A stretch of 64,000 nt of DNA from Scenedesmus sp. PABB004 (Eukaryota): positions 1,364,001 through 1,428,000 of the forward strand of contig JABVCE010000004.1 of NCBI GenBank assembly GCA_014905635.1. Direction: 5' to 3'. Position 1 is the first letter of the stretch. Every line of letters starts with the position of its first letter. The notes under the pieces are model-generated. The model was not told the origin of the DNA. It worked only from the letters and a program-made list of their open reading frames with translations, and did no database searches. Of the stretch, positions 1-55,449 are shown one piece after another. Both the position numbers and the translations under genes were made by a program.

Positions 1-963
1 CTGCGCCGCGGCGGCGGCGGGCGGCGGGGCAGGGCGGCGCGGCGGCGCGCGCGGGGCGCTGGGCCAGCGGGCCTGCGCGGCGCGCTGCGCAGCCTGGCGC
101 GCAGCGCAGCGCGGGCCGCGGCGGCGCGCGGGCGGCGCACCGGTGCAGGATGCGGCGGCCGTGCAGCGTGGTGAGGGCCATGAGGATGCAGGCGGCGTAG
201 AAGCGCGCCGCCTCCTCCGGCAGCCCCCCGCCGCGCGGCGACGGCGGGCACGGCGCCGCGCCCGGCGCGCCCAGCGCGGGGCGCGCCACGCGCAGCGGCG
301 GCGGCGGCGCGCCCCGGGCGGCGGGCGCATCGAGCGGCGGCAGCAGCGTCACGAGCACCGGCTCGCCGCCGTCGCTCGCCGCACCGGCGTCGCCGGCCGG
401 CGCGCCGCGCTCGGGCTCGTCGCCGCCGCCCTCCAGCAGCCGCACCGCCGACATCGCGAGCGGCAGCAGCTCCGGCGCCGCCGCCGCGCGCCACCGCGCA
501 TGGCGCGCGGCCATGACGTCGGTGACCGACCCCGCCGCCGCGTACTCCAGCAAGAGCAGCAGGTTGCCGGCGCGGCAGCGCTTGGCCGCGAGCAGCTGGA
601 GCACAAACGGGCACCCCCGCACGCGCGGTGCGCCTCGGCCTCGCGCGCGTGGTCCTGCGCGTCCGTGCCCGGCAGCAGCGCCTTGCGCACGAGCAGCTTG
701 CGTGCGCCGCCAGGGCCAACCGGCATGCTGACCAGATCGACGCTGGCAAACGCGCCCGCGCCGAGCGGGCGCAGCGGCTGAATCCCGCTTGCGGCGGCCC
801 GCTGCAGCTGCGCCTGGTCCAGCGGCGTCGCCAGCGAGAGCTCCGAGTGCTGCTGGGCGCACGCCTCGTCGTCGCCCGCCTCGCCGCTGGCGGCCGCCGC
901 CATTCGCAGCTGCTGGGCGCACGCCTCGTCGTCGCCCGCCTCGCCGTTGGCGGCCGCCGCCAT
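1..963 (-). CDS. AGC-type Ser/Thr protein kinase (N-terminal part; continues beyond the left window edge; apparent 1-nt frameshift at 614-618)
   Basis: Minus-strand translation gives LGAGAFASVDLV (Gly loop), VRKAL, AREAEAHRAC; then in a shifted frame CPFVLQLLAAKRCRAGNLLLLLEYAAAGSV ... LPEEAARFYAACILMALTTLHGRRILHR. An intron follows (GTGCGC at 140 to CAG ending at 1). ATG at 963 is assumed. Confidence 0.85.
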
Positions 964-970
964 TCGCAGC
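851..970. repeat. 60-bp tandem duplication (2 copies, 1 mismatch) at the kinase 5' end
   Basis: 851-910 and 911-970 are identical except gctgg/gttgg; encodes MAAAA(N/S)GEAGDDEACAQQ twice. Confidence 0.95.
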
Positions 971-1362
971 AGCGGCGGCCGCCCGGCGGCGCCGGCCCTG
1001 GCCGGCCGCGCCAAGCGCTGCTGCAGGCGTCAGGGGTGGTGGGGTGCCGCACCCCTCAAGAGCGAGCCTGGGTGGGCGGAGCGAGCCTGGCGGCGGCCGC
1101 GGGCCGGCGGCGAGCGCTGCTGCTCCGCGGAGGCAGGCGGCCGCTGGCGGGGCGTGGTATGGCGCGGAGACGGCGTGGGCGGGAGTGATGTTGCCGGGCG
1201 ATTGGCGTGCCGCTGCCGTCAAAACCCGGCGGTTCCGGCGCCGCTGCGCCGCCGCCCGCGCCGCCGCGCGCCGCTCCCAGGCTCGGCGCCGCACAGCCCC
1301 ACGCCGGTCCGTGGCGCGCGAAAGCCCAGCAGCAGCCGCGCCCTGCAAAAAATCAGCGCACG

Positions 1363-1791
1363 ATGACCGCGTCATCGCGCGCGCGCCGGGCGGCGGCAGC
1401 GCTCGCCGCGCTGCTGCTGGCAGCCGTGGCCGTCGCGGCGCAGGAGAAGGGGCAGGAGCAGGCGGCGCCGGGCCGCGGGAGCTCGCAGCGCTTCGTGGGC
1501 GCGGCCATCGTCGGCGGCGATGTGCCGTGCGGCCAGCCTCCGGGGCGGGCGTGCATCGTGTGCGGCGAGGCGCTCGCCCTGCGCGCGTGCGCGAGCAACT
1601 TCAAGTGCCGCGCTGTGGTGACCAACGGGACCTGTGGCGCGCTCAAGACCGTCGCGACGCCGCGGACCGAAGCGCCAGGCCTCACGACCACGATTCTCAC
1701 GAGCGCCAACGAGACGGCGGAGCAGGTCGTGGCGAGCGCGTGGGGCGGCAACGCGAGCGCGCTGGAGCGCGGCGAGCGGCGCGGCGCGTGA
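1363..1791 (+). CDS. Small secreted Cys-rich protein, possible PAN/apple-like fold
   Basis: Single exon. Signal-peptide-like start MTASSRARRAAAALAALLLAAVAVAAQ; pattern GGDVPC...C..C...RACASNFKCRAVV...CGALK; N-glycosylation sequons NGT, NET, NAS. Confidence 0.7.
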   Translation: MTASSRARRAAAALAALLLAAVAVAAQEKGQEQAAPGRGSSQRFVGAAIVGGDVPCGQPPGRACIVCGEALALRACASNFKCRAVVTNGTCGALKTVATPRTEAPGLTTTILTSANETAEQVVASAWGGNASALERGERRGA

Positions 1792-35839: not shown

Positions 35840-38800
35840 ATGAGCGGGTGGCTCAGAGGGCTGGTGAAGGATGTGGTCTCGGGAGACACCGTCGTGCTGG
35901 TGGGCGCCAGCGCGGGCCCCGCGGTGCCCGCGGAGAAGCGCCTGACGCTGTCCAGCCTCGTCGCGCCGCGCCTGGTGAGCGGCGGCCCCGGCCGGAGCGC
36001 GGGGAGGCGGGGCGGGCGGCCTGGATCATCGCGGCAGCGGTTGCCCGCGCGCGCCGCGCTCGCTGAGCGCCGCCCCGCCGCGCAGGGCAAGCGCGACGGC
36101 ACCACTCGCGACGAGCCGTTCGCATGGGAGAGCCGGGAGTTCCTGCGCAAGAAACTGATCGGCCAGGCGCGGGCCGCTGCTGCTGCTGTTTCTGCCGCCG
36201 CCGCGTGCCGCCGCCGGGGACGGGCGCGCGCCTGATCGCGCCGCCCCCGCCTCCCGCAGGCCTGCGTGTTCAAGGTCGACTACACGGTGGAGGTGGCCGG
36301 CAACAAGGAGTTTGGCTCGATCATCCTGCAGAACGGCAGCGCGCAGGAAAACGTGGCGGTCAGCATCGTGCAGAACGGCTGGGCCAAGGTGTGGGCGTGG
36401 AGCGGCACCAGCGGCAGCAGCGGCAGCAGCAGCGGTGGCGCCAGCAGCAGCGGCAGCGGTGGTGGCAGGAGCGGCGGTGGCGGCGGCGCGGCCCGCGGCA
36501 GCGGCGGCGGCGGCTCACGCGCGGCGGCGGCGCCGCAGGTGCGCGAGTCGGGCGGCGGCGCTGCGCAGAAGCAGAGCCCCTACTATGACGACCTGGTCAA
36601 GGCGCAGGAGGCGGCGCAGGCCGGCGGCAAGGGTCTCTGGAACAAGGCGCGGCGCGGGCGCGGGGCCGCCCCGGCCGCGCCGCGCGGCCCTGCCCGCCCG
36701 CCCGCCCGCCCGCCCGCCCGCCGCTGCGCGCGCCGCGCCGCGCCGCGCCACGCCCACTCGCGCCGCGCCGCGCCGCACCCTGCAGGACCCCGGCGCGATC
36801 GCGGCGTCGCTCGCGCCGGCGCCGGCCGACTTCAACGCCATGTCGTTCTTTCAGAGCGTCGGCAAGGGCAAGCCCGTGGCGGGCGTGGTGGAGGCGGTGC
36901 TCAACGGCTCCACGCTGCGCCTCACGCTGCTGCCCGAGCGCACGCCCGTGACCGTGGCCGTGGCGGGCGTGCAGTGCCCCAACATGGGCAAGCGCCCGCC
37001 GCCCGCCGCGGCGCCAGCGCCGGCGGCCGCCAACGGCGACGCCGCGCCGGCGGCCAACGGCGACGCCGCGCCCGCCGCGGCGCCCGCGCCGCCGCCCGCG
37101 GCCGGCGGCGCGGTCACCGCCGCGAGCATCGCCGCCGCGGGCGTCGCGCCAGGCGGCGCCGGCGGCGCGGGCGCGCCGGGCGGTCCCGAGCCGCTCGCGC
37201 GCGAGGCCAAGTGGTTCACCGAGCGCCGCGCGCTCGGGCGCGAGGTGCGCGTCGTGCTGGAGGGCGTGGACAAGTACGGCAACCTCTTTGGCTCGGTCTT
37301 CTACCCCGAGGCCGAGAAGCCGGCCAACCTCGCCGAGGCGCTCATGAGCGCGGGGCTCGCGCGCGCGGTGGAGTGGGGGCTCGCGATGATGACCAACGGC
37401 GCGATGCGCCTGCGCGAGATGGAGCGCGCGTCCAAGGCGGCGAAGCGGGGCATCTGGGCCAACTACGTCCCCGCCAACACCGGCCAGACCAAGCTCAGCG
37501 ACTCGTTCCTCGGCCGCGTCGTGGAGGTCGTGTCGGGCGACACGATGGTCATCAAGGACGTCAACGCCGGCGTCGAGCGCCGCGTCTCGCTCAGCAGGTG
37601 CGCGCAGCAGCCGCGGCGCGCGCCGCGCACGACGCGCCGCGCCCCGCAGCGCCCCGCCCGCGCCGCGTCCCGCCTAACGCCCGCCCGCGCCGCGTCCGCG
37701 CCCGCCGCTGCGTGCGCGCGCGCCGCGCAGCATCCGCGCGCCGCGCGCGGGCGGGCGCGACCGCGCGCCCGAGCCGCACGGCCTCGACGCGCGCGAGTTC
37801 CTGCGCAAGCGCTTCATCGGCAAGGAGGTCACCGTCAAGATGGAGTACACGCGCCGCATCGGCCCCGCGCCGCCGCAGCCCACCGACGGCGCGGCGCCCG
37901 CGGCCGACGTGAGGGCGCGGCGCGCGCGCGCGGCCGACGCTGCCGTCGCCGCGGCGGCAGGGCCCGCGCGCTCACCGCGCGCCCGCCGCAACCGCGCGCA
38001 GGACCGCGGCACGATGAGCTTTGGCGGCGTGGAGCTCAACCACGGGCGCGAGGGCGAGGACCGCAACGCGGCCGAGATGGTCGTCGCGCGGGGCTTTGCC
38101 TCGGTCATCCGCCACCGCAGCGACGAGGAGCGCAGCAGCGTGTACGAGGCGCTCGTGGACCTCGAGGAGAAGGCCAAGCAGGTGGGCGCCCCGACACGGA
38201 CGCCCCGCCCCGCGCCCCGCCCCGCGGCCGCGGGGGCGGCCGGGCTCGCTCGGGCGGCCGCGCCGGCCGCGCCGGCCCGTGGGCCGCGCTGACGCGCACG
38301 CGCCGCCGCCGCGCGCCGACCTGCAGGCCAAGCGCGGCATCCACAGCAGCAAGGAGGTGGCGGTGCCGCGCGTGAACGACGTGTCCACGCCCGGCAACGG
38401 CGCGCGCGCCAAGCAGTACCTGCCCTTCCTCCAGCGCGCCGGCAAGGTCGCGGGCGTGGTGGAGATGGTCTCCAGTGGTGCGCGCGCGCACGCACGCCGC
38501 CGCAGCCGCCGCGGCCGCGGCCGCTGCTCGCGCGCGGCGCCGCCGCGGCCGCCAGGGCAGCGCACGCGCGCCGCGCCCGACGCCGGCGCCGGCGCCCTGA
38601 CCCGCGCGCCCCGTGTGGCCCCGGCAGGGCACCGTCTGAAGATCCACATCCCCAAGGAGGGCGTGACCATCGCCATGGCGCCCAGCGGCGTGCGCGCGCC
38701 GCAGCGCCCCATGCCCGCCATGGGCGGCCGCCCCGCCGCGCCGGGCGAGCCGCACGGCGACGAGGCGTACGCGTGGACGCGCGAGCACTTCAACCAGCGC

Positions 38801-40362: not shown

Positions 40363-40863
40363 GGCCGCGGCGGCGGCAGGTCAGGGCCCTCGGGCAGGCG
40401 GCAGGTCAGGGCCCTCGGGGCAGGCGGGCGGCGTGTGACCCCGGAGGGTGGCACTGGTGTCAGAGTTCACTGCTGGCTCCCGGGGGCGCACGCTCGCGCG
40501 GTGCGCAGCGCCCCGCACTCCGGCTGATCTGGCTGCTCGTCAGTTTTGTGCCTGCAGCCGCGCCAGCGCCGGGCTGGCCGGCTCGCGCGTGGAGGGGTGT
40601 CCGTTTGGCCGCAACGCATGCCGCGGGCGCGCGCGCCGCGCCGTCGCGTCGGCGGCGGCGGTCGCGCCCGCGCCGAACTCGCTGCCGCTGCTGCCGGCGC
40701 CGTGATCGGCGCGCGCGCGGAGCAAGTTTTGGTCGTCGTCGCGGGCATTCGTGGTAATTCTCTTGCTCGTCACACCGCGCCACGGGTCCGCGCGCCTGCG
40801 CTGCGTCTCGCAGCAGCGCAGACGGGCGGGGGAGCCAGCGGGTGCCGCGCTGCCAGGCCAGGG

Positions 40864-41434
40864 TCACGCCGCCGCGGCCTCGTCGGGCGTTTTGGTGCTC
40901 ATCGAGTCGACCGCGTGCACCGCGTCCTGCAGCTCCAGCCAGATGGCCTGCGCGGCGCGAGCCGGGCAGCGGCGTCAAGGCGCGGCGACGGCGGCGCGGC
41001 GCCCACCGGCCGCGCCAGGCTGGCCTGGATGCAGCGGGGCGCACCTTGTAGACCATGCGCTGCCGCTGCACGCTGTTCTTGCCCTCAAACGCGGCCGCCA
41101 CGACGTCGATGTTGACGTGCCGGCCGTCGCCGTACACGTCAGACACCGACACGCGCTGCGCCTCCAGCGCCTCCGTGATCTTGGCCGTCATGCTCTCCAT
41201 GAGCTCCGCGCTCATCTGGCCCGCCTGGGCGGCGGCGGGGTCGGCGGCACGAGCGACGACGCCGCTGCTCCGACGCGCCGGCGCGCCCGCACCGCGGCGC
41301 TGCGCCGCCGCCAGAGCGGGGCGGCGCACGAGCACGGCGGGGCGGCCAGGTGTCATGGGGAGCCTGGCGGGGGCCGCGCGCGGCCGCGCCAGGGCGGCGC
41401 TCGCCGCCGCGCGCGGGGCTGCAGCTGCTGCCAT
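40864..41434 (-). CDS. BOLA4: BolA-family protein (BOLA4-like), organelle-targeted
   Basis: [67 protein letters not shown]; 1 intron; transit-like N-terminus. Confidence 0.93.
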
Positions 41435-41735
41435 GACAGGTGGTGCGCGGGCTGCGTGCGGTGACCGCAGTGTGCGGGCGCGAGGGCTGGGCACACAACG
41501 CGCCGGGGGGAGGGCGTGCGGGCTTGTCAGGAGCGTGGCAAAGGGCGAAAAACGCGGTGGTTTGCGGCAGCAGCGCGGACCGCCCCCCGCGCCGTCCTCA
41601 ATGTCGCTGACACCGCCAAGTGCCATCCGTCGCGCCCTGCCCGCGAGCCCAGCGCACCGGCGCCCGCCTGCCCCCGAGCCAATTGCGTCCTCCCGCGCCC
41701 TGCGCGCCAGCATGCGCCGGCGTTGAGCGGCCACG

Positions 41736-44700
41736 ATGCGTCCGGCCGCGATGGCGGGCTGCGGCGCGGCGCCGCGCCAGGCGCCGCTGGCAGCAGCGAC
41801 GCCGCCGCCGCGCGGCGGCCAGCCGCCGCGCCGCGCCGGCCGCGGCCCGGCCGCGGCGCGCGCCGCGCCGGCCGTCGCCGACGCCCGGGCGGCCCTGGAG
41901 GCGGTGGACCTCATCCGCTGGCCCGAGGGCGCGCGGCCGAAGCGCGGCGGCGTGACCAAGGCGGCGCTCGTCGGCCGGCTCAAGGTGAGCTGGCGGCGGC
42001 GGGCGCGGCGGCGCGCGGGCAGCAGCAGCGGGTGGCGGTGGGTGGGCCGCGCGCGGCGCCCGCCGCCGACGCCAGCCCGCGCCGCCGCTGCGCAGGCCTC
42101 GGAGCTGCGCGCCGAGCTGGAGCGCCTCGGCGGCGACGCGAGCGGGACGAAGGAGCAGCTCGCCGAGCGGCTGCTGGCCGCCGTCACCGCCGCGGCTGGC
42201 GCCGGCGATGAGGCAGCCGCACCAGCAGCGGCAGCCTTGCCGGCGGCCTTGCCGGCGGACGCAGGGGCAGCCGCGCCGCGCAGGACGCCGCGGTGGCGCT
42301 CGACGGCCGCCACGCTGCCCGCGGCAGCCCAGCGGCCGCAGCAGCAGCAGGTGGAGCAGCAGCAGCAGGTGGAGCAGCAGCAGCCGCAGCAGCCAAAGGA
42401 GCAGCCGCAGCAGCCGCCGCGGGCGCAAGCGAGCGCGGCGCAGCCGGCGGCGCGCAGGCACGGCGCGTCGGTGCAGCCGGGCGGCGTCGCGCCGCTCGAC
42501 CCCGCCGAGGCGGCGCGCGTCGCGGCGGCGGCGGGCGTGGACCTGGGCGCGCTGCCGCCGCTCGTGGAGCGCGCGCGGGGGCACGTGTATGACGCGGCAG
42601 AGCTGCACCTGACAGAGGAGGAGCGCGAGGCCGTGCTCAAGGTGCGCCGCCCCGCCCCGCCCCGGCAGGCCGCGCGCGGCGCCCCGGCGACGGGCCCCGC
42701 GCGCCGCGCCGCGGGGCTCAGCGCCGCGCCGCGCCGCGCCGCGCCGCAGTCGATGCGCTCCGGGCTGGCGCTCACCATGCTCGGCGGCGCGGCCGGCGAC
42801 GCGGCGCTCGGGGAGGGCGCGCCGCCGTGCGTCGCGCTCGTGCGCGAGCGCGACGTGTGGCTCTTTGACGTCGGCGAGGACACGCAGCGCGCGCTCATGG
42901 CGCGCGAGCACCTGCGCCCCTCCAAGGTGCGCGCGCGCGCGGTCCGCGCGCGCCTGCACGCAGCCGCCGCCGCTGCTGCCGAAAAAGGCCGCCCCGGCCC
43001 CTGAGCGTCACCGCCTGCTGCCCCGGTCGGCCCCTATGCCCTGCTCCCCCGCCCCCGGTGGTCCCCCCCCCCCCCGTGGTCCCCCCAGATGCACCGCATC
43101 GTCATAACGCGCCAGGCGCCCGACGCGCTGCTGGGCCTGCCGGGCGCGCTGTGCGTGATCGGGGCGTCGCGCGAGAAGGGCCACGAGACCGCCGACATCC
43201 CGGTGCACGTGTACGGCCCCGAGGGCACCGCCGCCTTCCTCAGCACACTCTACGAGGTGCAACGCGCCACGCCGCGGGCCGCGACGCGCCTCGCACCGCG
43301 CCGCCGCGGGCCGCGCCGCGGCCACCGCGCCGCGGGCCGCGCCGCCGGGGGCGCCGCCGGCGCGCGGGGGGGGGGGGGCGGGTGGGCCCTCCCCCGCTCA
43401 CCCCGGCGCGCGCGCCCGCGGCCGGCGCCGACCGCGCGCAGTGCTCCAACACCTTCCTGGAGATGCCGGTCGTGGTGCACGAGTTTGTCGCGCGCGCGGT
43501 GCCGCCCGAGGCCGCCGCGCCGGAGCAGCTCAACGCGCGCGCCAAGCTGTGGCGCGCGCTCATGCCGCCCGACCAGCTCAACCCGCTGGGAGCCATCGAC
43601 GGCGGGCTCGAGGCGTTCATGCCCATGCAGGCGCGCACGGCCACCACGCGCGCCGGGCCGTGCGTCCCGCGCCACGCGCGCCCTCCGCGGCGGGGCCCCC
43701 GCCGCGACGCGCGCCCGCGCCGCAACGCGCGCCCGCGCCGCCGCGCCGCGCCGCGCCGCGCCGCGCGCAGGGCCGCGCGCGCTTCAAGCGCGGCGCGCGC
43801 GCGCCCGGCGGCGTGCTGGCGAAGAACCCGCGCGCCGGGTACCGACCGATGCCGCCGCCGCCGCCGGGGGACCCGGGCCTCGAGGGGCGCCTGCCGGTGG
43901 GCGCGCTGACGTGGACGGTCGTCGCGGACGAGGCGGCGCTGCTGACCGCGGTCGCGCTCGACGCCGACGCGCCGACCTGGGGCGTTGTGTGGCGCGAGAC
44001 CGACCGCCAGGGCAACCTCAGCGTGCCGCGCTGCGAGGCGCTGGGCGTCGTCGACGGTGCGGCGCGCGGCCTGGCGGCCCGCCGCGGCGGCTCGCGGCTC
44101 GTGCATCCTCACTCACCGCCACCGCCACCCCACACCCGACCGCGCGCACAAACCACCCCCGCCCACGCGCACAGAGTCGCAGTACCGTGACGCGAAGAAC
44201 GGCCGCCCCGTGACCAACAAGGACGGCGTGCTCATCCCGGCGGGCCTCGTGTGCAGCCCCGACAAGCCCGGGCGCCGCATCGCGCTGCTGCCGCCGTGCG
44301 CAAGCGCCGACAGCATGGCGGCGCTCGCGGCGGGCGCGGACGTGCTGCTCGGCGCCGCGGGCGCGGGCGCCGTCGGCGGCGGCGCGCTCGGGCGCGGCCT
44401 CGGCGAGCTCGCGCAGGCGTGGCGCGTGCGGCACCTTGTCGTCACGGGCCTGCCCGCCGGCGGCGCCGGCGCGGCGGGCGCGGAGGAGGCCGCTGGCGGC
44501 GCCGCCGCCGACGCGGTGCTGTCCGCGGTGCGGCGCGCGTACGTGAGCGGGCCGGCGCTGCCCGGGCGCGAGGGCCTGTCGCTCATCTTGGAGGAGAACC
44601 TGGGCGAGCTGGAGCCGGGGCCGCCGGACATGGCCGACAAGACCGCGGTCGCGCGCGCGACGAGCCTCGCCGCCGAGCCCGCGGTCGACCCCGCGACGCA

Positions 44701-44959
44701 GGAGCGGCAGCGCGAGGCCGCGCGCGAGCGCGCGGCGCGCGGCGGCGGCGCGCACCGCGCGATGCGCGACTGGCAGCAGGCGGGCCGGCGCGGCGGCGGC
44801 GGCGGCGGCGGGGGCCGCGGCGGCGGCGGCGGCGGCGGCGGCCGCGGCGGGGGCGCGCAGTGGGGGCGCGAGCCGGCGTGGAAGCACGGCGGCGGCGGCC
44901 GGGGCCCCGGCCGCGGCGGCCGCGGCGGCCACGGCGGCGGCGGAAGGCACATGCGGTGA
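41736..44959 (+). CDS. SAP-domain + tRNase Z-like (metallo-beta-lactamase) protein with degenerate active site and RGG-rich tail
   Basis: [31 protein letters not shown]. RNase Z-like: [41 protein letters not shown], exosite CEALGV...[15 protein letters not shown]...PGRRI, GADVLL. 6 introns; TGA ends at 44959. Confidence 0.85.
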
Positions 44960-45021
44960 AGGGCCTGGTCGCAGAGCTCGGGGGCGCCCTCTGCGCCCAG
45001 TGCAATTTCCCATGTCAACTC

Positions 45022-45697
45022 GCGGCGGCAGGAGCGCGGGCGCAGCGGCGAGCGCGCGCGGCGACACGGCAGCCGGAGCCGCAGCGGGGCCGGCGGCGCG
45101 GCAGCAGGAGCCGCAGCGGGGGCCGCGGCGGGCGCGGCCGGCCGTAGCTGGCGCGCGCTGCCGGCGGCGACGGTGCCGGCGGCGGCGGCGACGCGTCCCT
45201 CGCCGCGCACCCCGGCAGGCTGTTGGCTGGGGGCGCAGCCCTGCAGAGCGTGTTTTCTGCGCGCCCGCCCTCGGCCGGCCCACCGCGGGGGAGCTGCGTG
45301 GGCGGCGAGCGCAGCGAGGTGGCCGTGGCGATGGAAGGCACTTGTAGATATTTGTGGGGGGCGGTTGCCCGTGGATCCGCTGCCCGCCGCTGCCGGTGGG
45401 CGGCGCTGCGTGAGCGCTCGACTGCAACGGCGGCCCGCCGGGCACGCCCGCGGCCTCGGCGCGCCGCCTACGCCCCGGCGCGCGCTGCCGCTCCCGCTGC
45501 CGCGCCCGCGGCGCCCCCGATCGCGCCCCCCTCGCGCCGGGCGTGCAGACCGGCCCACGGAGAGACGCCTGAGCAGCCTCCCAGGGACGCGAGCGCGGCG
45601 ACGGGCACGCCCACCACGCGCACAGCCCCCCCGCGCACGCGAGCCCGCCCGCGCCCGGCGCGGCGCGGCGGTCGTGCCAGAGCGAGCAGCGGCGACG
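45022..45697 (+). repeat. Left arm of a ~675-bp inverted repeat (copy of the MMTAG2-like gene 3' end)
   Basis: Reverse complement of 51468-52139; includes ...RRQERGRSGER...GRP-stop (TAG 45145-45147) and the downstream region, e.g. atggaaggcacttgtagatatttgtgg. Confidence 0.97.
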
Positions 45698-46313
45698 TGC
45701 AGGCGCGTGAGCAGCGTCGGGCGGGGCGCCACGAGACGCCGGCAGGGGCGGGGCGCCGCCCAGCGGGGCGCCAGGTGCGGCAGCGGCGCGCCGTGGCGTG
45801 CCGGTGGGGTGGTGAGCGCTGTGGCAGCGCGGGCGCGGCGCGGGCGCGTCGGCGGGGCCCGCGGGGCGAGGCTGTGCTGCCGCCCGGCGCGGCGCGGCGC
45901 CCAGCGGTCGCGGCGCGGCGCCTGGCGCGGGCCTCGCGGCCTCCCCCCGCCATGGCCGCGAGGGGCGGAGCCTCGGAGGGCGGGCTGGGCGCGGGCAGTC
46001 AACATGCGGCCGGCCCCCCTCCCCGGCCATGCCCGGCCCCCGGACTGGCCGGCGCCGGCGGGGTGGAGCCGGGGGAGCACGCGGCGCATCCGGGACCGCG
46101 CAGCCGGACCGGTCGAGGGGTGCCCCCTCTGTACTCGCTGCTGAGCATGCGCCCCTCGCGCCCGCAACCGGCTCGCCACGCAGGGCCTGAAGTAGATCGA
46201 GGACCAGCAGCCAGTCGGGCCCCGCTCGCCGACGCGGATGCGTGCGGCGGCGCGGCGGCTGAGACGGCGCCGCGCGCGCAGCGCGACAGCGGCGCGTGCC
46301 TGAGCAGGAGCGG

Positions 46314-49300
46314 ATGGAGCCGAGCGGCGGGCGCCCGGGCGCCGCCGCCGCGCAAGGTGCGCGCGCGCGCCGCGAGCGCAGCGGGGCGGCGGCGGCGGCG
46401 GCGCGCCGAGGCCCGCGCCGAGGCCCGCGCCCCGCGCGCGCCGCAGGCGGCGGCGGCCCGGCGGCCCCGCGGCCGGGCGGCGACGCCGAGCAGGCGGCGG
46501 CGCTGCTGAGGAGCCAGGCGGACGCAGACATCTTTGACGACCTCTTCAGCAAGTGGGGCCGCGACGACGTCGGCGAGGAGGTGCGCGGCGCGAGCGCGCG
46601 GCGCGAGCGCGCGGCAGCGGTGGCAGCCGGCGCGGCACGCTCACGCGCGCGGCCGCCGCACCCCCGCGCAGGCGAGCATGGCTGGCTTTGATGACCTGCT
46701 CTGGGCGGACGAGGGCGCGGCCGCGGCGGCCGCCGCGAGCATGGGCTGGCAGCGCACGGCGACGCCGGGCCTGCTGGCGGCGGCGGCGGCCACGCAGCAG
46801 CAGCTGGCCAAGCCCGGCGCCGCCGGGCGCGACGTGGCGGCCGCGGTGTCGGCGGCGGCGGTGGCGGCGGCGAGCCAGCGGCAGCTGCTCGGGCAGCAGC
46901 TGCTCTTTGGCGCGGGGATGGAGAAGCCGCAGTGCAGCGACGACGGCAAGGCCAGCGCGGGCGGCGCGGCGTCGGGGCAGGGCGACGCGCCCCGGTCCGT
47001 GCCGTGCTCGGCGCCGGCCGCGCCCGAGGCGCAGCACCCCGGCTCGGTGATGCCGGCAGAGCTGCCCGCAGGCGGCGGCGACGCGGCGACGGCGGCCGCG
47101 GCCGCGGCGGCAGCAGCGGCGGCGAGCCAGCTCGCGTTTGGCGCGAGCGCGGCGCAGCAGACCGCGGCGCTGCAGCTGCAGCTCGCAGCGCTCGCGCCGG
47201 GCGTGGCCGCGGGCCGCCACCTGACGCCCCAGCTGGCGCAGCAGTCGTTGCTGCAGCTGCAGCTCCAGCTGGCCCAGCAGCAGCAGCAGCTGCAGGGCCT
47301 GCTGCCGCCCGGCCTCAGCGGCCTGCTCGCGTACCAGCTCGGCGCGCAGCAGCAGCAGCAGCAGCAGCAGACGCAGCAGACGCAGCAGACGCAGCAGCAG
47401 CTGGCGCAGCTGGTGCAGCCGGCGGGCGGCGCTGGCGGGGGGAGCGGCTCGCTCCCGAGCAGCAGCTACGGCGCCGACGCGACGGCGGCGGTCGCGGCCG
47501 CAGCGGCGGCGACCGCGGCGTCTGCGCTGCAGGCGAGCGCGTGGCAGCAGCAGCAGCGCCCCGGCGGGCTGCCCGCGGGCCTGCCGTTCCCCGGCGCCGG
47601 CCCCGGCCCGGGCCCGGGTCCGTATGGGCCCTTTGGCCTCCCCGTGTCGGCGCCACTGCCCTTCCCGGCGGCGGGCGGGCTGTTCGGGCCGGCCGCGATG
47701 TATGGCGCGGCGGCGGCCGCCGCCGCTGCGGCGGCCGCGGCCCAGGCGCCCGCGGGTCAGCTCTTCTGGCAGCAGACCGCGCTGCAGCAGAGCCTGCAGG
47801 CGCAGGCGCAGGCCCAGGCGCAGGCGCGACTGCTACAGGAGCAGCAGCCCGTGGACGCGCCGGCCGGCGGCCGGAGCTCGCTCTCGGGCGCCGCCGGCGA
47901 GGGCCAGGCGCAGCCGGGGGCGTTCATGCCGCCGCCACCGCCCCCGGCCTCGGCCCCGGCCGCGGGCCACATGGGCCTGATGGGCCCGCCGCCGCCGCAC
48001 GCGCCCACGAACGCGCCTGCGGAGGGCCGCGCGGCAGCTGCCGCCAGCGCGGCAGCGGGCGCCGCCGCCAGGGCGGCCGCGGCAGGCGGCGCGCCGCCGC
48101 TGGGGCTGCTGCCCGGGCTCGGGCCCCTGCCGGCACCCGCGGACCTGCTCGCCGCGCTCGGCCTGGCGGCCGGCGGCGCGCAGCTCGGGGGCCTGCCGGG
48201 CCTGCCGGGCCTGCCCGGCCTCGCGCAGCTCCTGGGCCAGCCGGGCGCCCCGCCGGGCGCGCCCCCGCTGTTCCCCGGCAGCTGGCCGCTGCACCTCGCG
48301 GGGCTGCTGCGGCCGCCGCCGGTGCAGCCGACGAGCTTCCTGCAGCTCGCGCTGATGATGCAGTCGGCGGTGCAGGCGGGCAGCGGGCAGGGCGGCGGCG
48401 ACACCGAGCAGGCGGCCATGGTGGTGTCGGCGCTGCAGGGCCTCGCCGCCAACATGCGGGCCAACATGCGCCTGCTGGTGCCCTGGGGCGCGGCGCCCAC
48501 GCCCTGGGCGGCCGCGGCGCCGCGGCCGGCCGCGCCGCAGCAGGAGCTGCTCAACGGCAGCTGCCTCGCGAGCGGCCCGGTGCTGGGGCGGCAGCTGTCC
48601 AGCAGCCACGCGACGGACGTCTCGGGCCAGGCCGCCGGCCTGCCGGGCTGCCACAGCCACTCCACGGTCCCGACCGCCCTCCCCGGCGGCCTCGAGCTCG
48701 GCAGCAGCGAGTTTGCGGCCGCGGTGGCCGCGGCCGGCGGCGAGTTCCCGCTGCAGGCGATGGTGCCGGGCGCGGCCGAGGCCGCCGAGGCCGCCGCCGA
48801 GGCGCGGCAGCGCGCGAAGCGCAAGCTGCGGCAGGCCGAGAATCGCGTGGTGCAGTATGAGATCCGCAAGGTCCGCGCCAACAACCGCGTGCGCGTGAAG
48901 GGCCGCTTCGTCAAGATGGGGCCCAACGGTGAGCAGGGCGGCGGCGGCGGCGGCGGCGGCGCCGCCCGCACGGCAGCGGCGCAGGCAGCGCCCCGGCACA
49001 CGCGCGGCCACGGCTCACCGCGCGCCGCTGCCGCCGCCGGCGCAGGCCCGATCCTGCCGGGCGCCGCGGGCGCCGCGGGGCACCACCCGCAGCACAGCCG
49101 CAGCGACCACGAGGCGTCTGAGGGGGAGCTGAGCGACCTCGACGCCCACGCACGGCCCGGCTGCAGCGGCGCGCGCCACGCCGCGGCCGGCAGCGGCGGC
49201 AGCCCGCACCGCGCGGCCGGCGAGCCGGTGCTGCCGCCGGCGGGCGACGCGCCCGCGCCGCCGTCACCGCGCGCGCCTGCGGCTGGGCCGCCGACCGGCA

Positions 49301-50561
49301 TCGCCGCGCCCGCGACGAGCGCGGGCGCGGGCCCGTGGGGGCCGAGGCCGGTCGCGCGGGCGACGCGCCGCGCCAGCTGGGCTGCTGCACGGGCGCGGCG
49401 GGCGGCTGCCCGGCGTGCCGCAGCAGCCCCGCGGCCGGCGACCAGCCCTGCCTGGGCCAGGTGGTTGGCGGCGAGTGCAGCGAGGGCGCCGCGCCGCCGC
49501 AGCCGCACTGCCCACGCCACCACGGCGACCGCGCACTTGGCCACGCCGGCGACGGGCCGTGCCTCTGTGACGAGGCGTGCTCGTCGGGCGGCGGCGGCCA
49601 GGCGGGCCCGAGCGAGGGCCGCGGCGCGACGAGCATCAGCGGCCTGGGCCTCGCCGCCGAGGACAGCACGGGCGGCGTGTGCGGCGGGGCGACCAACCGC
49701 CTGCTGCGGCACAGCCTCCGCATGCCCGCGAGCGGCGCGGGGCCCACGCACGCCACGTGCAGCGGCGAGCCCAACCGCTGCAGCGCCCCGGCGGGCGGCG
49801 CGGCGGTGCTCGTGCACGGCCGCGCCGAGGCGGCAGCGTCCGACGTGCCGCCCGCCCACCTGGCGGCGCTGGAGCGGCAGCTGAGCCTTGGGGCGGGCGC
49901 GGGCCCGGAGGAGGCCATGGCCGCGGCGGCGCTGGTGGGCGCCAAGCGCGAGCCCGGCGAGCCCGGCGCGCCCGGCGGCGGGAAGCGCTGCAAGGTCGAG
50001 GAGCCCGCCGGCACGCCGCCCGGCAGCAGCACGCCGGAGGCGGTCGCGCTGCTCATGCAGGCGGCTTCGCCCGGCGGCGCGCTGTGGACCTCGGCGCTGG
50101 GCTTCAGGGCGTGGGACGGCGCCTGCGCGCCGGCCACGGCCCCGCCCGCGCTGCAGCTGCCGCTGCCGGCCAACCTGCTGGCGGGCGGCATCCACGGCCT
50201 GGGCGGGCTCGGCATCGCGAGCAGCCTCAGCGCCGTGCTGCAGCAGCAGGCGGCGATGCGCTCGCCGCACGCGGTGTGCGCCGCGCCCAGCCCCGAGCAG
50301 CTCGCGCTGCGGCCGGCGCTGCCGGCGGCGGGCGGCGCGGGCGTGCCCTGCCTCCCGCCCTGGCCGCTGCCGGCGCACCTCGTGTCGCCGCGCGCCTCGC
50401 TGGCGGCGGCCGCTGCCGCGGGCCTGCCGCTGGGCGGCGTCGGGCTGCCCGCCACGTGGCCGCTCGCGGCCGCGGTGGGCACGTGGGCGCCGCGGCCGGC
50501 GCGCCAGCGCCGGCGCGGCCAGGCGGCGGGCTCCGAGCAGACGGACAGCTGCCTGAAGTAG
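46314..50561 (+). CDS. CCT-domain (CONSTANS/TOC1-type) transcriptional regulator, Gln/Ala/Pro-rich
   Basis: RQRAKRKLRQAENRVVQYEIRKVRANNRVRVKGRFVK at about 48805-48915; introns 46357-46446, about 46581-46670 and 48929-49045. The 3' part needs a frame change (candidate intron 49228-49376 or an indel). Confidence 0.8.
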
Positions 50562-51467
50562 CGGCCACGCTGTGGTCGGGGCTGGGCACGCGTGCTGGGG
50601 TATGGCTTGGCTCATCTGACGGGTGCGAGCCCGCCGCAAGACTTGGCGGCGGCGCGGACGCCCGTGGTCAGGCGACGCTCGCAGGCGCGCCAGCGCTTGC
50701 CGCGCCGGCCACGCGGCCGCCCCGTCGCAGGCCCGTTGTTTGTTGGTGGGCCCCTGGGTCGCGTCGTTTTGCGAGCTTGCCGCGCGCAAAAAAGCATCTG
50801 TGGCGGTTGTGCACGGCGCGGCCGCCCCGCAGGCTGCGGCCTGCGCGGGCGGCGCGCCGGGCGGCCGCGTTTAGTGTGGTGGTCCGAATTCGTTCGCTGA
50901 GCGCGTGCGTGCCCCCGCCCGCCCGGCTCCCCCTGCACGGGTCGTCGGCCGTGTCGGTTCCGTGGACCGGCGGCGGCGACGGTCGCACGGGCGCTGGCGC
51001 CGCGCCTACGGGCGAGCCCCCGTGTGCAAATCCCACCGTTTGCTTACGATGATGCCCCCCGCGGTCTCACGCATGCCGACCCCACGGCGACCCGGGCGCT
51101 TTGTGCGCGCTCCGGCGCCTCGCTAGGCCGCTGCCTGCCCGCAGGGCCACATAACGGCCCCGCGCCCTTGTCATGTCTCTGTCGTGTTTCGTGGTCGTCG
51201 TGGTCGTCGTGGTCGTCGCCGTCAGGCGCGGCCGTCCCGCCGCACGCCCCGCTGCCAGGCGGGCGCGGCGGGCCGGCGCGCGGGTCTGGTGTGGGGGGTG
51301 CTTGCTTGGGTATCCGTCTGCAGGTCTGGTATCGTCGGGAGTACAGCGTCTGCGCGCGCAGCAGCAAAACCATGCCGCTGGGTGGTGTCCGAGGTTGGCG
51401 GTGGCAGCGCTCCAGCGGCGACGGCCTCCCTTGGAGTAACCGAGACTCTGGCGCCCCGCCCGACGCG

Positions 51468-52139
51468 CGTCGCCGCTGCTCGCTCTGGCACGACCGCCGC
51501 GCCGCGCCGGGCGCGGGCGGGCTCGCGTGCGCGGGGGGGCTGTGCGCGTGGTGGGCGTGCCCGTCGCCGCGCTCGCGTCCCTGGGAGGCTGCTCAGGCGT
51601 CTCTCCGTGGGCCGGTCCGCACGCCCGGCGCGAGGGCGGCGCGATCGGGGGCGCCGCGGGCGCGGCAGCGGGAGCGGCAGCGCGCGCCGGGGCGTAGGCG
51701 GCGCGCCGAGGCCGCGGGCGTGCCCGGCGGGCCGCCGTTGCAGTCGAGCGCTCACGCAGCGCCGCCCACCGGCAGCGGCGGGCAGCGGATCCACGAGCAA
51801 CCGCCCCCCACAAATATCTACAAGTGCCTTCCATCGCCACGGCCACCCTCGCCGCGCTCGCCGCCCACGCAGCACCCCCGCGGTGGGCCGGCCGAGGGCG
51901 GGCGCGCAGAAAACGCTCTGCAGGGCTGCGCCCCCAGCCAACAGCCTGCCGGGGTGGGGGCAAGGGACGCGCCGCCGCCAACGCCGCCGCCGCCGCCGGC
52001 AGCGCGCGCCAGCTACGGCCGGCCGCGCCCGCCGCAACCCCCGCTGCGGCTCCTGCTGCCGCGCCGCCGGCCCCCGCTGCGGCTCCGGCTGCCGTGCCGC
52101 CGCCCACGCTCGCCGCTGCGCCCGCGCTCCTGCCGCCGC
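51468..52139 (-). repeat. Right arm of the inverted repeat (native last ~42 codons plus downstream region of the MMTAG2-like gene)
   Basis: Reverse complement of 45022-45697; continuous with the MMTAG2 reading frame at its outer end. Confidence 0.97.
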
Positions 52140-53753
52140 CCGCTGTCGTGCCGCCCGCGTGCCCCGCTCCGGCTGCGGCTGCGGCTGCGCGGCCGGCGCT
52201 CGGCGCCGGGGCTGCGGCTGCGCCGCGGCGCGGCGCGCGCGCCAGCGCTGCGGCTCCTGCTGCGCCCCCGACCGCCGTCGCCCTCGCCGTGCCGCCGCGC
52301 CGGCTCGGCGTCGCGGCCGCGCTCGGTGCTGCGGCGCCGCCCGCTGCCGCCGCCGGCGCGCGGCGGCGGCGACGCCGAGCGCCGCCTGCGGCGCGCCGCC
52401 CGGCCGCCGTCGCTGCCGCTGCTGCTCGTGCTGCTGCTGCTGGCGCTGCGCAAACGCCGGCGCTTGTGCTTGTGCTTGGCCTTCTTGGCGGCCTTTGCCG
52501 CCTTTCGGCTGGCCTTCTTCGCCTGCGCGAGCCGGCGGGGGCGGGCCGTCGCGCGCGGCGCCGCCGCAGGGCGCTCTGCCCTTCGCCGCTCTCTCTCTTT
52601 CTCCCTCTCTCTCTTGCGCGCGCGCGCGCCGCCCACCTGCTTCTCAGCCTTGCGCGCGCCGCGCCGGTCCGCCCGGTCCAGCGCCGCGAGCTGCTCCGCC
52701 GTGAGCATGCCAGGCGGGCCGCCGCCGCCGCCGCCGGGGCCGGCGCCGCCCGCGGCGCCGCCCGGCGGGGCAGGCATCGGCGGCGGCGGCGGGTAGGCGA
52801 CCGTGCCCGGCAGCACCGCGCGCACCTCCTCGCGCACCGCGGTCGCGGCCGCGGCCGCGCCAAAGCCCAGCCCCGCGCCGCGCTCGCCCGCCGCGGGCTC
52901 GTCGCCGTCGCGGGGCCCGCCCTTGAGCAGCGCCGCGACCTCGTGCGCCTCCAGCGCCGGCGCGCCCAGCGCGCTCGGCGCGGCCTTGGGCTTCAGGCCG
53001 AGCGCCTGCGGCGCGCGCGCGCGCGCGCGCGTGGGCAACGCGGCGCCCGGCGCAGGCGCGGGCCGCTGCGCGCGGCCGCGCCGCCGCCGCCGCGCTGCGC
53101 AGCCGGCCGGCCGGCCGGCGCCCGGCCCGGCGGCGCACCTCGGCCATCATCTCGCGCTCGCGCGCCTTGACGGCCGCGAGCTCGTCGCTGCTCACGCCGT
53201 CGGCGCCCGCGGCCTTGTTGTACCAAAAGATGTCCTTGCCTGCCGGCGGCACGCAGGGCCGCCCCGGAGGGCACGGGGGGCGCGCGCGGGGCACGGGGCG
53301 GGGGCGGCGGCGTGATGCGGCGGCGGCAGCGGCCGGACGCGGCGAGCGGCGGCGGCCGCCGCAGCAGGCGCCGCGCGCACCCTTCTGCCAGCGCCCGGTC
53401 TGGACCTTGAGGCTGTGGCCGAGGTAGTACGACTTGTCCTTGTCGTTCTGGACCGCCTCCCACGAGAACTCGGCGCGCCCTGCGCCGGCGGCGGCGGCGG
53501 CGGCGCGGCGGCGGCGGCGGCGGCGGCGGCGGGCGCGGCGGGCCGGCGGTCGGCGGCGCGTGCGCCCGGCCGGCCGCACGGCCGCTGGGCGCGCGCGGTG
53601 CGGTCCCGGCCGCCGCACGGCGGCGGGGCGGGCGGCGGCGCACACCGCATGCGCCGGCGCGGCGCCGGCGCGGCGCCGCTGCTCGCCGCCGGCGCTTCGC
53701 CGCCGCACACCTCCGCGCGCGCCGGCCCGGGGCGGGCCGTTGTAGAGGCTCAT
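52013..53753 (-). CDS. MMTAG2: MMTAG2/C1orf35-like protein with Lys- and RS-rich tail
   Basis: MSLYNGPPRAGARGGRAEFSWEAVQNDKDKSYYLGHSLKVQTGRWQKGKDIFWY...VKAREREMMAEALGL; 4 introns; TAG at 52013. Confidence 0.9.
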
Positions 53754-53928
53754 GACCGCAGGTGCGGCGCGCAGCTCCTGCGGGCCTCACGGACGGCGGC
53801 GGCGGCACGGGCGCCGAACGCGCGGCGCTGCGCGGCTGCGGGGCCGGTGCGGTGGGCGTGAAACGCTGGGTGCGGCGCCCGTATGTGGAGGGTGTGTGCG
53901 GGGTGCCGGGGATGTGGCGGCATGAAAT

Positions 53929-53955
53929 GACGACGACGACGACGACGACGACGAC
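53929..53955. repeat. (GAC)n microsatellite in the MMTAG2/PhyH divergent intergenic region
   Basis: About 9 gac units read directly. Confidence 0.85.
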
Positions 53956-54125
53956 AGCAGCGGCGCGGCGTGTTGCCGTGCGGGCCGGCGTGGCTCCTAC
54001 CGCACACCCGGCCTGACCTCCTCTTGTCCTCGTCCCCCACGCCCCACCCCACTCCGCCGTCGACCGCCGCGCGCAAACCGCCGCTGCTGCTGCTGCCGGG
54101 CGCGCGCACGCGGCCCGCGCGCCGG

Positions 54126-55449
54126 ATGGAGCCCGACGCGCCGTCGCACATCGACGGCGACGGCTACGTCGTCAGCGCGGCCGACGCCGCGGCCTTCCGG
54201 GCCAACGGGTTCGGCGCCGCGCGCGGGCCGCCGGCGCCGCGCAACCGCAGCGCACGCCGCGCCGCGTACGCGCGCCGCGCCGCGCCGCGCCGCAGCTTTG
54301 TGCGCCTGCGCGGGGTGCTGACCGAGGCGGAGATGGCGGCAGTCATCGACCCTGTCTACCACGCCTTCATGCGGCGCGAGGTGGCCGTGCCGGGGCGGGA
54401 CCTCTGCGACATGGCCGGCGGCCCGCCCGGCGCCGCGCCGGAGGAGTTTAAGGTTTACAACGTCATGTTGCCCCGCATCTACCGCCCCGACTGGCAGGGC
54501 AACGTGCTGGAGCGCCGCTGCAAGGCGCGCGCGCGAGGGGGAAAGGGAGGAGGCGCGCCGGCGCCCGCGCGCGCCCGGCGCCGCGCCTGCGCGCGCGCCG
54601 ACGCCCCCGCGCCCGCGCGCAGGCGATCGCCGATCAGCTACGAGGCGGCGGTGACGGCGACATGGACTTTGAGATTGACTTCGACCAGATCTTTGCGAAG
54701 CGCGCCTCTGCGCCCGACAGCGCGTTTGACTGGCACCAGGTGGCGGCGGCGGCGGGGCACGCGTGCAGGCGGCGCGAGGCGCCAGACGCCGCCGCGACAC
54801 CGCGCCGCCGTGCCGCCCAGGACGCCGCGTACTGGCCCCCGCTGAAGAGCGACACCGCGGCCGTCAACTGCTGGCTCGCCGTGTCGGACGTCACCAAGGA
54901 GAGCGGCTGCCTGCGCTATGTGCCGGGGAGCCACCTGGAGCCGCAGCTGCGCAGGCACCGCCCAGGCGCGCCGCCGCGCGAGCCCGCGCCGCCGGCGCGC
55001 GGCTGCTCCCGCGCCCGCTCACGCCGCGCCGCGCCGGCCGTCGCGCCGCGCCCGCAGTCGGCGCGACGCGCGCGGAGTCGCACGCGCTGCGCACCGACGT
55101 GGACGAGGCGCGCGAGGCGGTCGTGGACGTGCCGTGCGCGCGCGGCGACGTCATCGTGCACCACGAGGCCGTCGTCCACGCGAGCTGGCCCAACACCAGC
55201 CCGCACTGGCGCCATGCCTACATCCTCAACTTCCGCAAGGTGCGCCACACGCCGCCCGGGCGGGCAGGCGGGGGCCCGCAGGGTAGGCTGCCGAGCGCGC
55301 GCGCCCACGGCCGCCGCGCCGCGCCGCGCCGCCCGCAGCGCGCGTGTATCGCGGAGGAGCGCGCGCTGGGGTTCACGCACAGCCACAACGACGAGGTCAA
55401 TTGGGACGTCTTTGCGCGCTGGCAGGGCGGCGGCGGCCCCGCGGGGTGA
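54126..55449 (+). CDS. Phytanoyl-CoA dioxygenase (PhyH)-family Fe(II)/2-oxoglutarate dioxygenase
   Basis: FRANGFVRLRGVL, FAK, WHQDAAYW (HxD), NCWLAV, GCLRYVPGSH, GDVIVHHEAVVHASWPN...R; 5 introns, 2 GC-AG. Confidence 0.92.

Follow-up and report, generated by a model that had tools for sequence, protein, structure and literature searches.

An inverted duplication of a neighbour's 3′ end around a CCT-motif gene in Scenedesmus sp. PABB004: the probable scar of a one-gene inversion

How does a single gene come to lie between two opposed copies of the 3′ end of its neighbour? The question is raised by a 64,000-nt stretch of the green alga Scenedesmus sp. PABB004 (GenBank assembly GCA_014905635.1, contig JABVCE010000004.1, positions 1,364,001 to 1,428,000 of the forward strand; hereafter the window, numbered from its first nucleotide). 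Here an inverted repeat of about 0.7 kb encloses a gene for a protein with a CCT motif, with an RNase Z-like gene on one side and an MMtag (MMTAG2-like) gene on the other. The original prediction for this locus left two answers side by side: an invertible cassette that could switch the orientation of a regulator, or the scar of an inversion with staggered breaks. We favour the scar, and put at roughly 65% the probability that the repeat is the fixed trace of a 5.7-kb, one-gene inversion with duplication of sequence at a breakpoint.

The repeat itself is real. When positions 44901-45800 were compared with the window by blastn, 45022-45700 matched the opposite strand between 52139 and 51465; the alignment spans 681 columns and is 96.329% identical (1112 bits, E 0.0), with 17 mismatches and five gap openings. 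In the repeat listing the same pair appears as five collinear pieces (383 nt at 99%, 105 nt at 93%, 79 nt at 90%, 73 nt at 95% and 55 nt at 93%). When the window, which is 79.9% G+C and without N, was compared with itself in full, this pair alone reached 120 nt or more at an identity of at least 85%, so that the match is far beyond chance and is not a dispersed repeat within the window. The segment is thus flanked by inverted copies of sequence that is otherwise non-repetitive over these 64 kb. The arms are slightly longer than first proposed (45022-45697 and 51468-52139): at the inner edge, 18 nt on the left (45698-45715) face 3 nt on the right (51467-51465), and beyond this indel all 16 bases of 45716-45731 match the reverse complement of 51464-51449. 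Because homology resumes past the indel, we set the arms and the interior between them at the limits given in Table 1.

The right arm is the working 3′ end of the MMtag gene. This gene carries the MMtag domain on small upstream exons (PF10159, E 1.1e-14, Pfam), and its long exon passes into an arginine/serine-rich tail, closed by the TAG at 52015-52013; the open reading frame (ORF) in the right arm is continuous with the upstream exons. As had been proposed, with an estimate of some 42 codons, the arm consists of the final 124 nt of the MMtag coding sequence (about 41 codons) with its stop, followed by 564 nt of downstream DNA. The left arm begins 62 nt past the stop of the RNase Z-like gene and in the same sense, close to the distance of about 60 bp originally given. 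Relative to the right arm, it has a 1-nt deletion at 45085 that breaks the reading frame, and it shows no codon-position G+C periodicity. Read by eye, the arginine/serine-rich C-terminal extension of MMtag (52013-52460, minus strand) is much longer than in its Tetradesmus relatives, and the duplicated 41 codons would therefore be part of a lineage-specific low-complexity tail. The tail also contains an internal 33-nt tandem repeat (family D18).

The orientation of the two genes can be compared with that in a relative. A protein search with MMtag returned three proteins, two from Tetradesmus obliquus (P0007 and P0008) and one from Scenedesmus sp. NREL 46B-D3 (P0006, KAF6259459.1, annotated as 'partial'). 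P0006 has the MMtag domain at residues 11-84 (PF10159, E 2.8e-25, Pfam). The ~95 residues at its end do not belong to MMtag; their match is the N-terminus of P0005, the orthologue of the CCT protein (51% of 63 columns, E 2e-08). P0005 (790 aa) is the one relative of the CCT exon in a large protein collection (E 2e-62), alone among 8000 scored candidates in both searches, and is collinear with the large CCT exon over the stretch between its N-terminus and the CCT motif, the motif included (46% over 338 columns, E 9e-46), the N-terminal match having an E of 3e-06 (BLASTP). We mapped P0006 onto the window by tblastn with low-complexity filtering, an unfiltered run having been swamped by alanine/arginine-rich chance matches. 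The MMtag part of P0006 matched the minus strand, and two pieces of its CCT part matched the plus strand with a joint E of 4.3e-11 (Table 1). Given that one gene model reads one strand, MMtag and CCT would lie head-to-tail in Scenedesmus sp. NREL 46B-D3, close enough together to have been annotated as a fusion; given that the parts of P0006 fall on opposite strands of the window, the two genes are convergent here. Relative to this outgroup, represented by one automated model, the CCT segment is inverted.

These observations are consistent with an inversion in which one of the two breaks was staggered. In the ancestor, MMtag and CCT would have shared a strand and stood head-to-tail, an arrangement that the Scenedesmus relative retains. 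The stagger of one break would have measured about 690 nt, its limits lying 41 codons ahead of the MMtag stop and 564 nt past it, and the other break would have fallen between the 3′ end of CCT and the 3′ end of the RNase Z-like gene. Rejoining of the 5.7-kb CCT segment in reverse, with the staggered stretch filled in on both sides, would leave one copy at each end: the right copy would keep MMtag whole, and the left copy would stay on the 5′ side of CCT and decay as a frameshifted pseudo-tail. With A for the RNase Z-like gene, X for CCT, c for the arm and D for MMtag, an ancestral A-X-c-D would become A-c′-X′-c-D when only the breakpoint at c is staggered. Such a model keeps c joined to D, matching the intact MMtag ORF, and keeps c′ joined to the 5′ side of CCT, matching the tandem order in the relative. 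Each copy is indeed contiguous with its ancestral neighbour, the right arm with the MMtag ORF and the left arm with CCT, upstream of which it lies in CCT's own sense. Inversion of MMtag instead of CCT would give the order c-D-c′-X′, which is not seen.

The proposal of an inversion scar therefore gains support, since MMtag and the first CCT exons share one strand in the relative's model but lie on opposite strands in the window, and the left arm lies where the old MMtag tail would meet the 5′ side of CCT. Judged from its position and sense, the left arm is apparently the leftover of this former contact between the MMtag tail and the CCT head. We infer that the change ran in this direction, that the inverted state is fixed, and that it arose by staggered breaks and end joining rather than by a template switch during replication or by duplication followed by recombination from arm to arm. 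At the two putative new joints (Table 1), no terminal microhomology was seen when the sequences were read directly, which is compatible with end joining. The repeat comparison of the window found no second duplicated segment from the other breakpoint. A 6-nt direct repeat, CGAGAC, occupies the first (45732-45737) and near-last (51441-51446) positions of the interior on the plus strand; it was noticed post hoc and may be chance.

Inversions of this kind are described in the Drosophila melanogaster group. Ranz et al. (2007, PMC1885836) report inverted duplications at 17 of 29 inversions, with a median length of 321 bp and a range of 46 bp to about 1.9 kb; in 12 inversions the duplication comes from one breakpoint only, and one of the duplicates decays by substitutions and small indels, the mean identity being about 88%. 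Set against that account, the algal repeat likewise consists of non-repetitive sequence that was unique in the ancestor, in this case a piece of a protein-coding gene, and that is present in inverted orientation once at each end of the segment. One copy is functional and the other gathers substitutions and small indels, there is no transposon at the breakpoints, the duplication stems from a single breakpoint, and its length of about 0.7 kb falls within the reported range. The two cases differ in scale, the algal segment being a micro-inversion of 5.7 kb with one recognisable gene, whereas the Drosophila inversions are cytologically visible; in host, which here is a very GC-rich green alga; and in age, the algal copies being younger (96% identity against a mean of about 88%). 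A full-text literature search, judged by titles and the openings of abstracts, found no staggered-break inversion in a green alga, although descriptions under other words are possible.

Several observations weigh against an inversion with a single staggered break. The outgroup evidence consists of one automated, 'partial' and fused protein model, and the two Tetradesmus MMtag models (P0007 and P0008) are not fused and say nothing on neighbours. That the 3′ ends of the RNase Z-like and CCT genes were once in contact is a prediction, and in the one contig from a relative that extends downstream of an RNase Z-like gene, a 1763-nt metagenome contig of a more distant alga (L002, 64% G+C), the next gene is a convergent TPR-like ORF instead of CCT (695-1762, minus strand; TPR_17, E 1.1e-4, below the cut-off). 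The arms have, moreover, diverged unevenly. The outer part of the left arm (45022-45320, 299 nt) differs from its partner by 13 substitutions and five indels (identity about 94%), and the inner part (45321-45697, 377 nt) by three substitutions and no indel (99.2% identity); the difference has a Fisher p of 0.0037 for substitutions and of 1.6e-4 for all events (18 vs 3). Such a pattern is not what one duplication and subsequent neutral decay would be expected to leave. A metagenome search with the RNase Z-like alignment gave 67 matches and two loci of 1.7 kb each, too short for synteny; one with the CCT exon gave 599 pattern matches and no relative, and searches of genome contigs and viral contigs with the CCT and MMtag alignments likewise returned no relatives.

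With a single outgroup model, an origin of the left arm without any inversion in this lineage has to be weighed. Ectopic break repair or template switching might have pasted an inverted MMtag 3′ end between the RNase Z-like gene and CCT, in which case the tandem order in Scenedesmus sp. NREL 46B-D3 would be a rearrangement of its own or an annotation artefact. Both arm ends are abrupt and the other breakpoint left no second duplicated segment, as such a copy would have it. For this, however, chance would have had to place the copy precisely upstream of CCT and to turn it so that the MMtag-to-CCT order of the relative was reproduced, and we consider this origin unlikely. That a DNA transposon carries the CCT gene and has the arms as its terminal inverted repeats, as a long inverted repeat around a single gene might suggest, is close to untenable. 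The outer flanks, read directly, show no target-site duplication, Pfam found no transposase domain in the six interior ORFs tested, and the window holds no other copy of the arms; one of the arms still serves as the end of a host gene, and in the relative CCT is the native neighbour of MMtag. The original prediction had set aside ordinary terminal repeats because it saw no target-site duplication or transposase and because one arm runs into an intact coding sequence, and the flanks, the Pfam search and the intact MMtag ORF bear this out.

What might have kept the inner part of the arms so similar? A gene-conversion tract, constraint on both copies, and faster change in the low-complexity, repeat-rich outer part are open candidates. 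A structured RNA is an unlikely cause of the inner-arm conservation: none of eight sub-threshold Rfam matches in the window falls in the arms, and the arms fold no better than shuffled sequences (z +1.57 and +1.45). On these results, together with the missing codon periodicity, a structured RNA or a small gene in the arms was rejected. An AT-rich island in the arms at TGTAG (45343 and 51822) finds no support as a poly(A) signal: read by eye, the majority of the window's 29 TGTA[AG] sites lie in or antisense to coding sequence, and the number of such sites is near a rough estimate from base composition.

A gene-conversion tract would be a sign that the arms interact, and so bears on the cassette of the original prediction, in which the arms still recombine and the CCT segment flips within the population or among cell lineages. 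Flip-flop inversion by homologous recombination between long inverted repeats occurs in plastid inverted repeats and in human inverted segmental duplications. The algal locus is similar in that highly similar inverted arms surround a unique segment, whose inversion by recombination would leave the flanking genes undamaged, and uninterrupted identical blocks of 158 nt and 150 nt are long enough for homologous recombination. It differs in that the arms are short, a single orientation was assembled and no dedicated recombinase was found. Site-specific invertible DNA, such as bacterial invertons and the FLP/FRT system of the yeast 2-micron plasmid, requires specific sites that are short, together with a recombinase gene close by; the algal locus has in common with it no more than a gene placed between inverted repeats, as the algal arms are a fragment of a host gene and no recombinase domain accompanies them. 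Pfam searches of 26 ORF translations from both strands of 40460-54171 found no recombinase gene in or beside the element, and only four translations had any family: CCT, MMtag, BolA and a sub-threshold SAP.

Against a live cassette, furthermore, the six interior ORF translations given to Pfam contain neither a recombinase domain nor any family other than CCT, and the arms are 3.7% diverged overall, with five indels. The geometry is no more favourable: in either state, the 5′ side of CCT keeps the same arm sequence behind the 3′ end of a co-oriented gene, so that little regulatory change would be expected from flipping. We conclude that an orientation switch is unsupported and that continued flipping of the segment is highly improbable. 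That the arms still exchange sequence, with gene conversion keeping the inner 377 nt at 99.2% identity and occasional crossovers flipping CCT between tandem and convergent orientation relative to MMtag, is likewise a long shot. If true, it would amount to a natural orientation polymorphism in an alga, one that decides whether CCT and MMtag transcribe into each other, and a read-through transcript over both arms could fold as a long double-stranded stem and feed RNA silencing.

The identical blocks of 150-158 nt also bear on the assembly, as they are unbridgeable by short reads. The inverted duplication might be spurious, or the arms might be real and the interior misoriented; two of the five indels, at 45085 and 45317, lie in G runs, a typical site of sequencing error. 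Over 45022-45697, however, the arms differ from each other at 21 places (16 substitutions, of which a hand count gives 11 transitions and five transversions, and five indels), a transition-rich set. They also lie in the middle of the window, within 64 kb free of N, and the assembled orientation makes evolutionary sense of the left arm. An artefact is therefore, in our judgement, just as improbable as continued flipping, and a fixed inversion scar remains the reading that we prefer.

The genes at the locus could not be judged by open frames, since at 80% G+C every frame is open; they were judged by codon-position G+C, Pfam and relatives, with splice sites and transcript ends predicted by eye. 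The CCT gene is accordingly given a minimum coding extent (Table 1). Its first conserved exon starts about 780 nt downstream of the left arm, and its coding sequence begins upstream of the ATG at 46678, as the small exon 46512-46581 is conserved in Scenedesmus (84% identity); candidate GT/AG borders were read by eye at 46582 and 46668. Further downstream the coding signal shifts frame at about 49200-49330, where no intron could be placed, and the shift could stem from an indel in the assembly, from a missed intron or from a second gene. The C-terminal coding block at 49329-50558 has no Pfam family and no usable Atlas match (best 0.81). Among six interior ORF translations, Pfam recognised the CCT motif in one and no family in the other five. 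The claim that the interior holds only the CCT gene thus stands as far as recognisable families go, although the plus strand may carry one gene or two.

The CCT gene had also been described as a photoperiod- or clock-type regulator. Only the 44-residue CCT motif is recognisable by Pfam in the window ORF and in its orthologue P0005, and neither a B-box nor a receiver domain was found in them. By domain content the predicted product is a CCT-motif-only protein, not one of the CONSTANS or PRR type, and the photoperiod or clock label is not borne out. As it stands, the locus has little bearing on photoperiod or clock biology.

Table 1. Coordinates of the repeat, the genes and the mapped parts of the relative's protein model (positions in the window)
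Feature	Position	Strand	Description
Left arm	45022-45731	+	Decaying copy of the MMtag end (last ~41 codons, stop, downstream DNA); same sense as the RNase Z-like and CCT genes
Right arm	51449-52139	-	Functional 3′ end of MMtag: coding 52139-52016, TAG 52015-52013, then 564 nt downstream
Interior, putative inverted segment	45732-51448	+	5717 nt; carries the CCT-motif gene, with an arm on each side
Inner near-identical part of the arms	45321-45697		Partner 51844-51468; three substitutions in 377 nt
Putative new joint 1	45021/45022		3′ flank of the RNase Z-like gene meets outer end of left arm; homology begins here
Putative new joint 2	51448/51449		3′ flank of CCT meets inner end of right arm; homology stops here
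MMtag (MMTAG2-like) gene	52013-53752	-	ATG 53752; at least four exons; arginine/serine-rich tail; stop 52015-52013
P0006 residues 18-110	53471-52919	-	Identity 41% (residues 18-81) and 63% (residues 76-110)
P0006 residues 290-308	46512-46568	+	Identity 84%
P0006 residues 309-344	46669-46770	+	Identity 70%
CCT-motif gene, minimum coding extent	46512-50561	+	From tblastn of the relative's model, BLASTP to P0005 and codon-position G+C
CCT gene, small exon	46512-46581	+
CCT gene, large exon	46669-48927	+
CCT gene, further coding signal	about 49220-50480	+
CCT gene, stop	50559-50561	+
CCT motif (PF06203)	48805-48915	+	E 9.8e-07, 29.2 bits against a cut-off of 28.4; residues 766-802 of the ORF from 46510
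RNase Z-like gene, last exon	44042-44959	+	Glycine/arginine-rich tail; TGA 44957-44959

On the other side of the left arm, the label tRNase Z-like finds partial support. Two consecutive exons match consecutive parts of RNase Z/ELAC1 structures in PDB, both weakly (E 0.058 and 0.0012), and Pfam found no family in the ORF. For its last exon, 13 relatives were found at E≤0.001; nine were aligned, and since several of these finish in comparable glycine/arginine tails, the gene stops short of the arm and does not run into it. RNase Z carries a signature of metal-binding histidines, HxHxDH; where this would stand (about 43107-43130, in 42780-43262, plus strand), the translation reads T-R-Q-A-P-D-A-L, and the motif is apparently lost. 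Upstream in the same gene there is a sub-threshold match to a SAP domain (E 2e-4). The RNase Z-like gene may thus encode a catalytically dead, nucleic-acid-binding derivative that is conserved in several algae. Across its TGA, the decayed copy of the arginine/serine tail is in phase with the RNase Z-like ORF (44957-45147, plus strand), which has a one-in-three chance of arising by coincidence; read-through of the TGA would append an arginine/serine (RS)-like tail to the protein.

Further features lie near these genes. A match to a BolA-like domain lies upstream of the RNase Z-like gene, at about 41042-41131 on the minus strand (PF01722, E 5e-06, 27.2 bits against a cut-off of 25.7). ARAGORN called tRNAs at 42865-42957 (plus strand, 93 nt), at 47991-48085 (minus strand, 95 nt, with a 4-base anticodon) and at 37725-37815 (minus strand, 91 nt). 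The calls at 42865 and 47991 lie within coding-like parts of the RNase Z-like gene and of CCT; they look like spurious predictions of the sort that GC-rich DNA gives.

If the repeat is indeed the scar of an inversion, the locus would be a clean and datable case in which a compact and extremely GC-rich algal genome inverted a single gene and left its neighbours unharmed, because the break duplicated the neighbour's 3′ end. It also illustrates that a mis-fused gene model of a relative can serve as evidence of synteny and orientation. The signature of staggered breaks, mainly described in flies, would thereby be extended to a green alga and to the scale of 5 kb.

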